A DNA stretch of 64,000 nucleotides, from positions 161,634,001 to 161,698,000 of the forward strand of contig OX597816.1 in assembly GCA_951406725.2 (NCBI GenBank). Direction: 5' to 3'. Position numbers and translations under genes: made by a program. The notes under the pieces are model-generated. The model was not told the DNA's origin and searched no databases. It was given only the letters and a program-made list of their open reading frames with translations. This DNA is from Octopus vulgaris (Eukaryota). Shown here piece by piece: positions 15,422 through 60,489 of this stretch. Positions within the stretch are counted from its first letter, which is position 1. Every line of letters begins with the position of its first letter.

Positions 15422-16735
15422 CATAGGTTCTCAAAGTGGGCACTACTGCCCCCTGGTAGATGTTGAAATGGTCTAAGTGGGCACTGGTGCCTAAGGTGAG
15501 GGTGGGGGCAGTAGAGAAAAAGGAGGCATTGGAAGGAAAGAAGTGGATTGGGGGATGCTATAAATTTATAATATCACTAGCTTTCGTGTGCGGCAGATGT
15601 ACAGGGGCAATAAACACCGCAGATGCTCAGGAAACAGATTCCATCACATGCCAGGGGGAGAAACTAGAAGTAGTTGATAGCTTCCGCTACCTAGATGACC
15701 AAGTCTGTAGTTGGGGTGGATGCTCAGAGAGTGTTACCACTAGAATAAGAATAGCCTGGGCAATGTTCAGAAAGCTCCTTCCCCTACTGGTGACAAAGGA
15801 CCTCTTGCTCAGAGTGAAAGGTAGGTTGTACGATGCATGTGTGTGAACTGTTATGCTTCACGGCAGTGAAACATGGGCTGTGACTGCTGAAGACATGTAG
15901 GCTCAAAAGAAATGAAGCTAACATGATCTGCTGGATGTGTAATGTCAGTGTGCACATGCAACAAAGTGTAAGCACCCTAAGAGAAATGTTGAAAATAAGA
16001 AGCATCAGATGTAGTGTGCAAGAGAGACGTTTGCATCAGTATGGTCATGTACTATGGATGGGGATGAGGCTGTGAAGCATGACCTTCGAACGTTGGGCCT
16101 CACAGAGGCAATGAAAAAAGACCGAGACCTCTGGAGATATGCTGTGACTGAGAAGATCCAGCAAATAAAGTGAGTTCACAGCTGTAACCTACTCAAGTGT
16201 CACATAACCAGCCCACTCAAAAGTACCTTGGATCATATGGCGACATGCTGTGCTTGAGAAAACCTTCTGAGTCAAGTACATCAAAACCAAAATCAAATGG
16301 AAATTGTAATTGTGATCCCCGTGCCAGTGGCACGTAAAAAGCACCATCCAAACATGGCCGATGCCAGCGCCGCCTTGACTGGCATCCATGTCAGTGACAC
16401 GTAAAAAGCACCCACTACACTCTTGGAGTGGTTGGCATTAAGAAGGGCATCCAGATGTAGAAACACTGCCAGTTCAGACTGGAGCCTGGTTTAGCCTCCT
16501 GGATTCCCAGACACCAGTCAAACCATCCAACCAATGCCAGCATGGAAAATGGATGTTAAACATTGATGATAATGATGATGATGATGATGATTATATTAAA
16601 TATCAAATGATTCATAGTATACATAAATTAGTAAAATATAAAATATTTATTTATACATAAAAATAGGGGTGGGGGCACTGAGGGTATTATGTGAACATGA
16701 AAGGGGCAGTGGACTAAAAAGTTTGAGAACCTCTG
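15422..16735. mobile_element. hAT-type MITE interrupted by an RTE LINE fragment
   Basis: TIR CATAGGTTCTCAAA...TTTGAGAACCTCTG. Confidence 0.55.
15578..16591 (+). mobile_element. 5'-truncated, degenerate RTE-clade LINE
   Basis: Translates LEVVDSFRYL...RIRIAWAMFRKLLPLL...KGRLYDACV*TVMLHGSETW with stops; followed by the 3' UTR and a (GAT)n tail. Confidence 0.88.
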
Positions 16736-23255: not shown

Positions 23256-23359
23256 CTGGTATTTTGGAAAAGTGAGTCGGAATGCTTCTGAAGAATGGCT
23301 TCTACATCCTGGTCTTCAGAAAGGCTCTTTTCTTATTCGCCAAGGAGAGGCTCTTCCAG
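23256..23359 (+). CDS. SH2 exon 1: WYFGKVSRNASEEWLLHPGLQKGSFLIRQGEALP
   Basis: Pyrimidine tract + tgcag acceptor; cag|gtaact donor; WYFG start and FLIR (FLVR) motif; 104 nt. Confidence 0.95.
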
Positions 23360-31472: not shown

Positions 31473-31637
31473 ACACATACACATTATCAGTACGAGACTG
31501 TGATGAACTTCGAGGATATTTGGTGAAGCATTACAAGATCCTCTCCAAGAAAAATGGAGACAATGAAAAAGATCATTACTACATAACTGCAAAGAGAACA
31601 TTCAGCACACTTGAAGAACTTGTTAGTCATTACTCAG
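31473..31637 (+). CDS. SH2 exon 2: DTYTLSVRDCDELRGYLVKHYKILSKKNGDNEKDHYYITAKRTFSTLEELVSHYS
   Basis: Poly-T tract + ttag acceptor; cag|gtaaac donor; LSV, VKHYKI and F.TL.ELV.HY SH2 motifs. Confidence 0.95.
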
Positions 31638-40610: not shown

Positions 40611-41470
40611 TTAATTAAAACTCTCAGCTTATTTTGCTGAGTATGATGGAAAGTGTCTGCTCTCTGCAGCCAGCAGACTAAGGTGACACTTGTTTACTGA
40701 TTATACTTCAAGAACCCTGCAGGGAACTCTTGTAGTTCCAAGCAGTGCTGATTTTCGTTGGTTATTCTATCTTCACATTTGCACCAATCTTTTGGAACCA
40801 TATTTGTAGTGCTGATACTATTAACTATGCTGTTATTACTGGTACCACATCCACTCTCCTCATTGCTTACAACCTACGTATTTCCCATGTCAAATTGTCA
40901 TAAATGTTCAGTTTTTCTTCTTTCTCTTTGATCCTGTTGTCACTGGGACATGCGATGTCGATTATCATGCATGCTCTTTCTCTTTTCATTCACCACAACA
41001 GTGTCAGGTTTCCAATGTCTGATCTGATGGTCACACTGAATCATTTGCATCCTACAGGATTTTGTAATCTTCATTCTTGGTGACTCCTTCTGCAGTTTGT
41101 TCATACCACATCTTTGTTCTTTGTAGGCTGTGATTTCCATAGAGTTCCCAATGAGTCATTCTTACCACATTGTTAGTCACCTTTTGTATTCATATTGTGC
41201 CAATCTCGGGCTGTTGCTAATGATGTGCCATACTGTTTCACCCCTCTCACCACACATTCTTAATTTGTCATTCTTGGTAGTGTTGTTGAATCTTCACTTC
41301 CCATAGTTCTTAACATTCTTGTGCTGTGCATATAAGTGCTTCTGTCTCTATCTTCAGGTCATTCCTCCTCGTCCATAGCCACTGGTCTCTTGTATTTGTC
41401 TTGGCATTTGTATCTCTTTCAAACTGACCATACATGTGTTTTTCCTTCCATGCTACATATTTATATATTT
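40600..41470 (-). mobile_element. Degenerate R4/Dong-like LINE 3' end
   Basis: Minus strand gives DLKIETEALICTAQE, a decayed zinc knuckle RMCGERGETVWHII...LAQYEYKR, and DHQIRHWKPDTVVV; ends in TAA-rich repeats. Confidence 0.75.
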
Positions 41471-41529: not shown

Positions 41530-42391
41530 TGCCTGGCACTTAGAATGTCGTCAGGCACTCACAGCCCTCTATCAGTCAAGCAATGGGATTGGTGGATATT
41601 CTGCTTTAGAAATTAGGATTAGTGGTGGGGAAGTGTGATGACATTCTCAGGGAGACTCTGAGTGCCAATGAGAACAAACTGGCTAGTCTGTTCCCAGGGG
41701 ACTTTCCAGGAACTATCATGGATAATTTCCAGTTGCTGTCACATGTGGGACAGATCTGTCTGTTGGCCAAGTTTGTAGTGATGATCGCATTGCTACTCTC
41801 CTTCAATTGGGCAGGCAAGGCAGTTTTCCTTTGTCTAGTAGCTGTGGTGAACAAGGCTGAACTGTATGAGGACAGATACATTCCTCTTTGGTAGAGCTCT
41901 CATTGACTTCTTCAAGTTTCACTTGAAAAGGAAATTGAGAGTGGGGTGGGAAGTGCTGTCCTCAAGTGAGTTTATTGAAAGGCGGGTGAAAGTTGTGAAA
42001 ATGGCAAGAGTGGATGGTACCTCTCTAAGTGTCGACCTGTGAGTCAGAGAGAATGGATTGGAGAGGGTACTTGCTCCTGGGGTTTCAAGGAAATATCAGA
42101 TAGTGAGGTTCCTCGATTATTCCTAGAGGCCTTCCTGTATCAGGAGGACCACATCTCTATCATCCTCCCCGCTGCTTTTCTTTTTTTTTTTAAACTTTTG
42201 TATGCTATTCATATGAACCTTCTTTTTCAGTCTATACTGTGTTTACTTTCTTTCTTTCTTTCACTTTTTTTTATCATTTCATTTATGTAAACCCCCCAAC
42301 ACTTTATGTCTGTCTATGTATTGTCCCCCTCATCCTTTACCCTTGTGGAGAATAAATGAAATTATCATCATCATCATCATCATCATTATCA

Positions 42392-42498: not shown

Positions 42499-42663
42499 TA
42501 GTGGCAGACGGGCTTTGTTGTAAACTAACTCAGATCTGTGACAAACCTAGATCGTTGCTTTGGGCAATGGATCGGGGCAAACCAGATGAATTCATGACAA
42601 CTAAAGACACATTACAACTAGTCAAAAAGATTGGAAGTGGGCAATTTGCTGAAGTTTACTATG
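42499..42663 (+). CDS. SH2 end, linker and Gly-loop exon: VVADGLCCKLTQICDKPRSLLWAMDRGKPDEFMTTKDTLQLVKKIGSGQFAEVYY
   Basis: ADGLC and GSGQFAEV motifs; atg|gtaagt donor; acceptor at 42498 preferred, with in-frame alternatives at 42501 and 42507. Confidence 0.92.
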
Positions 42664-45828: not shown

Positions 45829-46085
45829 CAAAATGGAATAACCAAGTTGAAGCCGCAGTGAAAATGCAGAAAAAAGACTGTGTGACGACTGCTGCATTTT
45901 TAGATGAAGCTCAAATTTTAAAAAGCATACAACATAACAACATCGTCAAGCTACTGGCAGTTTGTAGTGATGAACCTGTCTATTTAGTAACTGAGTATAT
46001 GGTAAACGGACGTCTTTCACAATACCTTCGTGAAGGGAAAGGAAAGCAGCTAGGTTTGACTAGCTTACTTTGGATATCAGCACAG
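45829..46085 (+). CDS. Kinase N-lobe and hinge exon: AKWNNQVEAAVKMQKKDCVTTAAFLDEAQILKSIQHNNIVKLLAVCSDEPVYLVTEYMVNGRLSQYLREGKGKQLGLTSLLWISAQ
   Basis: ttgcag acceptor; cag|gtaaga donor; AVK lysine, FLDEA alphaC Glu, LVTEYM gatekeeper and hinge. Confidence 0.96.
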
Positions 46086-49041: not shown

Positions 49042-49195
49042 ATTGCTGATGGGATGGCATATATGGAAACTGAAAATTTCATTCACAGAAACCTCGGAGC
49101 TCGTAATATATTGGTCGGAGATCAAAATCTTGTGAAAATTGCAGGGTTTGGAATGAGTAAAGTTGCTGACGATCCCGACTTCAATTTTAGAAAAG
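49042..49195 (+). CDS. Catalytic and activation loop exon: IADGMAYMETENFIHRNLGARNILVGDQNLVKIAGFGMSKVADDPDFNFRK
   Basis: tcgtag acceptor; aag|gtatat donor; 154 nt; IA.GMAY.E and ARNILV kinase motifs. Not in the supplied + strand ORF track. Confidence 0.96.
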
Positions 49196-56953: not shown

Positions 56954-57139
<186 letters not shown>

Positions 57140-59671: not shown

Positions 59672-59850
59672 GTATGGGAAGCAAAGAGGCCTTTGAGAAA
59701 GTTCAGTCTGGCTACAGGATGCCATGTCCACAGTATTGCCCTGCTGAGATTTACAATGTTGCCCTCACTTGTTGGAACATTAATGCACCAAGGCGACCCT
59801 CGTTTGACTTTCTGAACAGCTTTCTTCATGATTGCCACTCTACTTCCTGA
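59672..59850 (+). CDS. Terminal coding exon: SMGSKEAFEKVQSGYRMPCPQYCPAEIYNVALTCWNINAPRRPSFDFLNSFLHDCHSTS*
   Basis: tcctag acceptor; GYRMPCP, CW and RPSF motifs; TGA at 59848-59850. Confidence 0.95.
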
Positions 59851-60215
59851 CCTGACCCCAATTTTCTCACTTCATCTTCTTCTTCTTTGTCTACTACTAC
59901 TACAACAACAACAACAACAACAATTACTACAACAACTACTACTACTACTACTACCACCTATGCTGTTAATTCTTAAAATCTGGTGACCAATGGACACAGG
60001 AACAGATTATCAACTCACACACAAGTACAAACACACAGCAGAGATATCTACAAACACAATCTTCTTTTCCTTAATCTTGTAGAATTGTCACAGCCAGCCA
60101 GTAAGGCCTAGAATAGATATGAGACTGAGCTAACAAACAGCCTAAGTAAACTTAACAGGAAAAACAGAAAAAAAAAAAACCCCATCGTGGACCAACTTTA
60201 GTAGAGGGTCCTTGA

Positions 60216-60221
60216 AATAAA
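60216..60221 (+). promoter_or_regulatory. Candidate polyadenylation signal AATAAA
   Basis: First AATAAA I saw after the stop codon, about 370 nt downstream; the AT-rich context makes it weak. Confidence 0.25.
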
Positions 60222-60489
60222 TTATACAATTATTTAAGTCAAAGAGTATTGCTTATGTTAATCTTTACCTTACATACCAAAGGAGCTAATTAACACAAAT
60301 ATAGAACTTGTTGGGCAAAACCATTGACATTGTACCTATACAATACACACCACAGAGAGATACACTTTTTTTAATTACTAATCGTATGTATATGTAAATG
60401 TAAAAATTAATGTAAAATTGTTGTGTATATGTTAGTATATGTCTGTGTTGTATGGATGTTGGTGTATGACTATGTGTAGTGTAATGATA

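Follow-up and report, generated by a model that had tools for sequence, protein, structure and literature searches.

The window, the whole 64,000-nucleotide stretch of Octopus vulgaris DNA analyzed here, carries most of a gene that, judged from its sequence, is a single-copy mollusc RING-SH2-pseudokinase derived from the Src64B-type lineage. The encoded protein stops short of the position of Src Y527. This short tail is a conserved and old end of the mollusc RING-SH2-pseudokinase, and neither an error nor a private allele. By itself, the loss of the tail is minor and to be expected, as one sign of the wider rebuilding of a Src duplicate. On balance, we lean toward a Cbl-like phosphotyrosine-directed E3 ligase, for which the loss of the tail would be part of the dismantling of Src autoinhibition.

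The window consists of AT-rich animal DNA. On the forward strand, seven GT-AG exons (23256-59850) assemble into one open frame of the SH2 plus tyrosine-kinase type. The first SH2 exon reads WYFG...GSFLIRQGEALP (23256-23359), with the alphaA2 and betaB5 Arg kept and the betaB7 Ser replaced by Gly, and the second contains the betaD4 His and the motif KHYKI (31473-31637). The following exon (42499-42663) encodes the end of the SH2 domain, a family-specific linker, KPRSLLWAMDRG, predicted to form a helix and carrying F/Y at the Src W260 position, and the glycine-rich loop GSGQFA. The N-lobe and hinge of the pseudokinase, with beta3 Lys and alphaC Glu kept, come next (45829-46085; positions 45831-46085 are 100% identical to an Octopus protein). 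They are followed by an exon carrying the catalytic loop HRNLGARN, GFG instead of DFG, and the activation loop DDPDFNF (49042-49195), and by an exon for the P+1 loop LKMAVKW, APE, and alphaF (57003-57134). The last coding exon, from alphaG to alphaI, occupies positions 59672-59850, with its AG acceptor at 59672, and ends in HDCHSTS-TGA without a Y527 tail. The first AATAAA past the stop (60216-60221, forward strand) is a candidate polyadenylation signal. Positions 1-23255 correspond to the downstream part of a 27,086-bp phase-2 intron, in which no SH3 exon was found, and which leads from a RING exon to the SH2 domain. This 445-bp RING exon lies 3.8-4.3 kb upstream of the window (G000:C3:161629725-161630169, L010:5725-6169). 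It encodes a C3HC4 RING of the TRIM2/3/56 type, both flanking helices, and a low-confidence linker. Three exon searches, in which only the best candidates were scored, found the gene as a single copy in the octopus genome.

Positions 59803-59850 (forward strand) encode FDFLNSFLHDCHSTS-TGA, and the protein specified by the last exon ends ...RRPSFDFLNSFLHDCHSTS-TGA, with the stop at 59848-59850. When the AlphaFold model is aligned with structures, residue 551 of P0018, the final one, falls at about Src residue 523 in most Src rows (range 521 to 527), approximately four residues short of Y527. By sequence count, 18 residues extend from the R of RPxF to the protein end, and Y527 is the 22nd in all four control Src-family proteins. 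The first-pass annotation had claimed that the tail ends before the Csk-site tyrosine and that the Csk-dependent clamping of the tail by the SH2 domain is missing. Both claims are borne out: no Y527 equivalent is present, and therefore no such clamp is possible. Comparison of the stop position across species gave the same picture. In 30 of 31 orthologue rows, from cephalopods, bivalves, gastropods, and a chiton, the tail comprises 16-19 residues from RPxF, stops 3-6 residues ahead of the Y527 position, and lacks a Tyr there. The remaining row, P0002, is a mis-joined model with an unrelated C-terminus. In 9 of 30 rows, the last helix contains a Tyr that corresponds to Src Y519, which is not the Csk site. 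The nine named octopod isoforms listed in the cluster share an identical short tail, and all the full-length cluster members checked have the short end.

After these comparisons, we give next to no credence to the alternative that a Tyr-bearing tail is supplied by an alternative last exon or by read-through, the stop seen here being due to misassembly, restricted to a private allele, or only one end among several. A TGA followed by C is a stop context that can leak, and the TGA of this gene has a C next to it. However, read-through would yield PDPNFLTS..., with no Tyr at the Y527 position, and an error or a private allele, both raised in the first-pass annotation, does not fit the recurrence of this short end in 30 of 31 orthologue rows and every full-length cluster member checked. 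An alternative last exon had also been envisaged. With a profile of the last exon, we found no second alphaG-alphaI exon in the window or in the 60 kb downstream (best downstream score 6.4 bits, against 69-89 bits for true exons). A tail-only profile had no power, its control itself reaching only 6.3 bits, and a very short additional exon could escape that search. The Pro directly following the stop aligns with Src P525, which we treated as a chance match. At least 0.90 of the sampled words of 59672-60260 are contained in 19 of 22 listed sequencing runs (six studies, two organism codes), an observation that we did not use as support.

Conservation of the kinase domain was assessed on the same orthologue set. 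The HRD motif is changed to HRN (Asn codon 49090-49092), with Asn in 30/30 orthologue rows, and DFG to GFG (Gly codon 49144-49146), with Gly in 29/29. Two of the three residues VAIK Lys, HRD Asp, and DFG Asp are thus lost in an intact fold, and the domain is most likely non-catalytic. The Y416 equivalent is Phe (codon 49180-49182) in 29/29 orthologue rows. P0024, a member of the octopus cluster outside the 31 rows, has a Tyr at this position, and the site varies within the branch that holds the octopus sequences. The proposal that both regulatory tyrosines and both catalytic aspartates were lost together is correct for the octopus gene, but the loss of Y416 is not absolute. Conversely, beta3 Lys, alphaC Glu, the catalytic-loop Arg and Asn, the APE Glu, and the alphaF Asp are each invariant in the 30 rows with letters. 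Conservation of beta3 Lys and alphaC Glu would fit ATP binding, and residual activity is formally open. The P+1 motif is changed to an invariant MA (30/30). Conservation is highest in the catalytic and activation segment, with a mean identity of 0.81 within the family versus 0.43-0.50 to active Src-family kinases; the dead site is therefore still under constraint. In the AlphaFold model, built from a 97-row alignment (mean pLDDT 82, pTM 0.67), the kinase domain folds like that of Src (Z 38, 254 residues at an rmsd of 1.0 A), and the orientations of the domains are not fixed. Tyr is common at residue 467 of P0018 (27 of 30 rows), where control Src-family proteins have other residues; it is a candidate regulatory phosphosite.

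At the other end of the protein, Pfam identifies RING, SH2, and kinase domains and no SH3 domain in full-length relatives. The RING is present and the SH3 absent in 27 of 31 orthologue rows, the other four having no N-terminus or being mis-modelled. A Pfam scan of seven family proteins detected no SH3 domain in any of them. Similarly, a profile search over 100 kb upstream, the window, and 60 kb downstream revealed no SH3 exon (best score 7.9 bits, against 15-46 bits for four control SH3 exons), and none of the 55 genome-wide matches to PF00018 is at this locus. The PDB structures closest to the RING are those of TRIM2, TRIM56, and TRIM3 (E 2.5e-18 to 1.1e-15). All eight Zn ligands are invariant in the 27 RING-bearing rows, as are the equivalents of TRIM2 I25, L39, H40, Y50, P61, R64, F81, and L86. 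In TRIM2, activity requires RING dimerisation, mutation of R64 or F81 abolishes activity, and L86R greatly lowers it (PMC9732051). The equivalent of TRIM2 V89 is Thr or Ser in 29/29 rows, which may weaken the predicted core of the RING dimer. Mean identity to the octopus sequence is 0.64 in the RING core and 0.22 in the adjoining linker. RING and SH2 lie too close together to accommodate a coiled coil, and B-box, filamin, and NHL domains are absent from the seven family proteins scanned with Pfam. Of the 20 close octopus RING paralogues found, five were scanned, and all five show a B-box match (four above the Pfam cut-off). The local B-box profile was weak: controls scored 19 bits, and the best match in the region 13 bits on the other strand.

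The RING-SH2 junction is found in annotated proteins of octopods, bivalves, gastropods, and a chiton. Complete ORFs on Logan contigs contain it as well, namely P0024 (up to 3.0 kb, 16 contigs) and P0030 (up to 4.7 kb, 307 contigs). As the octopus coding span is 64 kb, these contigs probably represent spliced transcripts. Gly2, the myristoylation residue, is absent from 22 of 23 N-termini examined; one row starts with MG, and first exons vary between models.

Like the kinase domain, the SH2 domain combines kept and lost residues. Its residues are labelled following the Src SH2 nomenclature (betaB5, betaB7, betaD4, alphaA2, BC loop). The pocket keeps betaB5 Arg (29/29), alphaA2 Arg (28/29), and betaD4 His (30/30). 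It has lost two hydroxyls, betaB7 Ser being Gly (29/29) and the BC-loop Thr/Ser being Ala, Met, or Gln (29/29), which could make the affinity for phosphotyrosine low or otherwise change it. Phe or Tyr occupies the Src W260 position in 30/31 rows, and the linker carries a family-specific Trp, invariant in 31/31 rows, within the predicted helix. An SH2-pseudokinase contact of the Csk/Fes/Abl kind may exist, and the SH2 domain, which the first-pass annotation took to be permanently free, may therefore be so only in part. Superposition of the AlphaFold model gave rmsd values of 9.6 with open Src 1Y57, 7.5-8.1 with Fes, and 16-18 with clamped Src/Hck; no template being a real fit, we dropped the reading of the SH2 orientation from this model. 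Two tyrosine positions are further candidate regulatory phosphosites. One is a family-specific Tyr of the SH2 CD loop (DELRGY in exon 31473-31637, residue 217 of P0018), present in 28/30 rows. The other, at the position of residue 187 of P0018, is found in 25/29 rows and is Leu in octopus; controls differ at this position.

Of 7,061 candidates in a profile search, 838 proteins reached an E of 1e-30 or better, and the best 120 of these were examined. Among these 120, a gap in score separates 34 proteins at 536 bits or more from the next at 458 bits. We left out of the orthologue set the multi-kinase repeat proteins P0078 and P0080 and the isoform P0011, which gave 31 rows, P0018 standing for the octopus cluster. 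All 23 rows with a species name are from molluscs: octopus, chiton, bivalves, and gastropods. Seven of the eight rows without a species name were placed in the tree and nest among named molluscs, and no member from outside the molluscs was found among the best 120 of the 838 matches. Among the best 150 of 1.84 billion representatives, only one, the family's own, carries this RING; annelid or brachiopod orthologues may be concealed within its 50% cluster or have escaped the word index. A database search with the RING region retrieved only six family members from seven candidates and did not reach TRIM donors. The combination of RING and SH2 was absent from the ESM Atlas families shown (clusters of 50 or more), which include SH2-kinase clusters and some in which a kinase accompanies a U-box or a RING. 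P0078, P0080, and P0170-P0175 contain tandem tyrosine-kinase-like domains, several with degenerate catalytic motifs.

According to a phylogeny of 44 rows and 379 SH2-kinase columns, rooted with Abl as outgroup, the family forms a single clade (100/100), sister to the protostome Src64B-type kinases (96/87), with a stem of length 1.25; such a long stem can be misplaced. Branching within the family largely tracks the mollusc groups, the chiton branching first. Intron positions and phases, compared by eye at the junctions, match those of the two Src paralogues on C23 at 7/7 and 6/7 sites, one being shifted by about three codons in the BC loop. Introns of the Src42A/Frk-type gene on C19 differ at the internal boundaries examined. 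In both C23 Src paralogues, the SH3 exon ends in phase 2 just before the Trp of the SH2 domain; in the present gene, the RING exon stops at that very position, likewise in phase 2. Exon shuffling would be expected to leave a matching phase-2 junction of this kind. The octopus genome retains three ordinary Src-family genes that have the tail Tyr. One Src paralogue, at G000:C23:43.49-43.54 Mb (L050-L054), has a catalytic loop of the vertebrate type, HRDLRAAN, instead of HRDLAARN, and a short tail ending in SEHSYLE.

The gene shares with the Src family (c-Src, Fyn, Hck; protostome Src64B type) its SH2-kinase sequence (PDB Src, Fgr, and Hck, E about 1e-102), fold, introns, and tree position. It differs by a RING that replaces the SH3, HRN and GFG motifs, a Y416 position that is mostly F, the absence of the Y527 tail, F/Y at W260, and in most cases no Gly2. 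SH3, tail Tyr, and both aspartates were tested and are absent, and the gene is thus outside the Src family though descended from Src. The first-pass annotation had likened its end to that of v-Src, which also lacks the Y527 tail. The oncoprotein keeps its SH3 and catalysis, is activated by the tail loss, and has other residues in place of the tail. In contrast, the mollusc protein has neither an SH3 nor either of the catalytic aspartates and its kinase is predicted to be dead, which makes the parallel misleading. A natural loss of the tail is already known from SRMS, an active SH3-SH2-kinase related to Src that has neither the C-terminal regulatory Tyr nor myristoylation (PMC7352994). Unlike this member of the Brk/Frk group, the mollusc protein has a RING and no SH3, is predicted to be dead, and groups with Src64B-type and not with Frk-type rows, SRMS not being identified in the tree. 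The same pair of substitutions, HRN and Gly for the DFG Asp, with beta3 Lys kept, characterizes the MLKL pseudokinase (HRN and GFE; PMC12463104, human according to the text and mouse according to the legend). MLKL belongs to a separate lineage and has another architecture, and the resemblance is convergent.

Two other systems are comparable. The RING has both flanking helices and the activity-critical residues of TRIM2, TRIM3, and TRIM56. Nevertheless, B-box, filamin, and NHL domains are missing (0/7 proteins scanned) and a coiled coil has no room, so that the protein is not a TRIM member. In the Cbl family, as in Hakai, SOCS, and SLAP-Cbl pairs, a phosphotyrosine-reading module is joined with a ubiquitin ligase function. 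Compared with Cbl, the order is RING then SH2, the RING is of the TRIM dimeric type, a pseudokinase is carried, and the TKB four-helix/EF-hand part is lacking; no Cbl_N family was detected in the Pfam scan of family proteins. Cbl is an analogue and not a homologue.

These features suggest the following scenario. Before the split between chitons and shelled molluscs, a Src duplicate would have acquired a TRIM-type RING exon at the phase-2 intron ahead of the SH2 domain. It would have been left without catalysis and have shed the autoinhibitory kit, that is SH3, W260, usually Y416, and the Y527 tail; once catalysis was lost, we propose, a Csk-controlled tail had nothing to restrain and was shed. 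The untethered SH2 domain, probably aided by the conserved pseudo-active-site surface, would dock on tyrosine-phosphorylated receptors or Src substrates. Clustering on these targets would pair two RINGs into a TRIM2-type four-helix dimer, without the help of a coiled coil. The RING dimer would activate E2~ubiquitin, the target would be ubiquitinated, and Csk would be unable to switch the protein off. Several points speak against the ligase reading. An intact-looking TRIM RING can be inactive, as is the isolated human TRIM3 RING, which is monomeric (PMC9732051). In addition, the V89 position is Thr/Ser, and no coiled coil would aid dimerisation. The loss of both hydroxyls from the SH2 pocket, and the invariant beta3 Lys and alphaC Glu with the residual activity that they would permit, also count against it. 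A bolder extension, which we put forward tentatively and with more doubt than belief, is that the dead cleft and the tail-free SH2 jointly read active Src or phosphorylated substrates and that clustering switches on the TRIM-derived RING. The protein would then provide tyrosine signalling with a third brake that depends on neither Csk nor Cbl, obtained via one exon swap at the SH3-SH2 intron.

The first-pass annotation had proposed a Csk-independent phosphotyrosine adaptor or competitor. The absence of the Y527 clamp and the probable lack of catalysis agree with this part of the claim, but it was made from the window, and the TRIM-type RING found upstream in place of the SH3 makes an E3 ligase likelier than a plain adaptor or competitor. 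We consider it quite improbable that the protein is such an adaptor or a dominant-negative Src, with a RING that serves for dimerisation or protein binding only. The missing tail, SH3, and catalytic aspartates and the kept SH2 arginines would suit this role, and some TRIM RINGs are inactive (PMC9732051). However, the residues contacting E2 and ubiquitin (equivalents of I25, Y50, P61, R64, and F81), invariant in 27/27 rows, would be superfluous in a RING used for dimerisation only. The pseudokinase domain could instead pick the target, such as an active Src paralogue that it binds via the conserved activation and P+1 surface, the SH2 domain being structural or independent of phosphotyrosine. 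The high identity of the activation segment (0.81 versus 0.43-0.50), the invariant MA (30/30), the loss of the SH2 pocket hydroxyls, and the linker Trp invariant in 31/31 rows are in agreement with such a selection. We nonetheless judge it unlikely, as betaB5 Arg (29/29), alphaA2 Arg (28/29), and betaD4 His (30/30) are kept as in a working phosphotyrosine pocket. A constitutively unclamped kinase with residual activity, similar to v-Src or ErbB3, is highly improbable. This reading could draw on the six kinase-domain residues described above as invariant, from beta3 Lys to alphaF Asp (30/30 each), on the Src-like fold (Z 38, rmsd 1.0 A), and on the Tyr of P0024 at the Y416 position. Against it, no row with letters retains either the catalytic base (replaced in 30/30) or the Mg-binding Asp (replaced in 29/29); ErbB3 itself retains the DFG Asp.

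We found no description of the RING-SH2-pseudokinase architecture in the literature covered, as judged from titles and the beginnings of abstracts and with subscription journals outside the coverage. The SH3-SH2-kinase unit and its tail under Csk control are described as a module of ancient conservation whose parts co-evolve (PMC8662651), and the word "RING" is absent from the available text and supplement of this holozoan kinome paper. The oyster kinome paper reports six Src-class kinases in its table S1, among which an orthologue, if any, is not distinguishable (PMC4883820); the terms "RING," "SH2," and "pseudokinase" do not occur in the available main text, and the passages covered remark on neither the activity nor additional domains of these kinases. 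In molluscs, an ancient SH3-SH2-kinase unit has been dismantled in one lineage and kept so since the divergence of chitons and shelled molluscs. If the RING is active, nature would have made a degrader directed at phosphotyrosine out of Src itself, and the gene would be a clear example of a kinase turned into an E3 by exon shuffling. Databases label these proteins as SRK2, SRK3, Fyn, Lyn, or Yrk "tyrosine-protein kinase." Consequently, what is likely a negative regulator may be taken for an active Src in studies of mollusc signalling.

The gene models and introns show additional features. First exons differ among annotated isoforms, with at least four N-termini ahead of a common MAKAG start (L011, G000:C3 about 161.62 Mb); one alternative N-terminal exon was mapped 9.3 kb upstream of the RING exon. 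In some annotated Octopus isoforms (P0001, P0019), LFSG is added to the activation segment, and 12 intronic bases of the window (56991-57002) match this insertion. They are preceded by TG and not AG, which may reflect a non-canonical acceptor, a species difference, or a model error. Short open frames at 15460-16170, 40900-41200 (reverse strand), and 41610-42290 gave no Pfam match in any of five fragments and presumably are decayed pieces of non-LTR retrotransposons, which they resemble. The introns in the window also hold many copies of short interspersed repeats and microsatellites.
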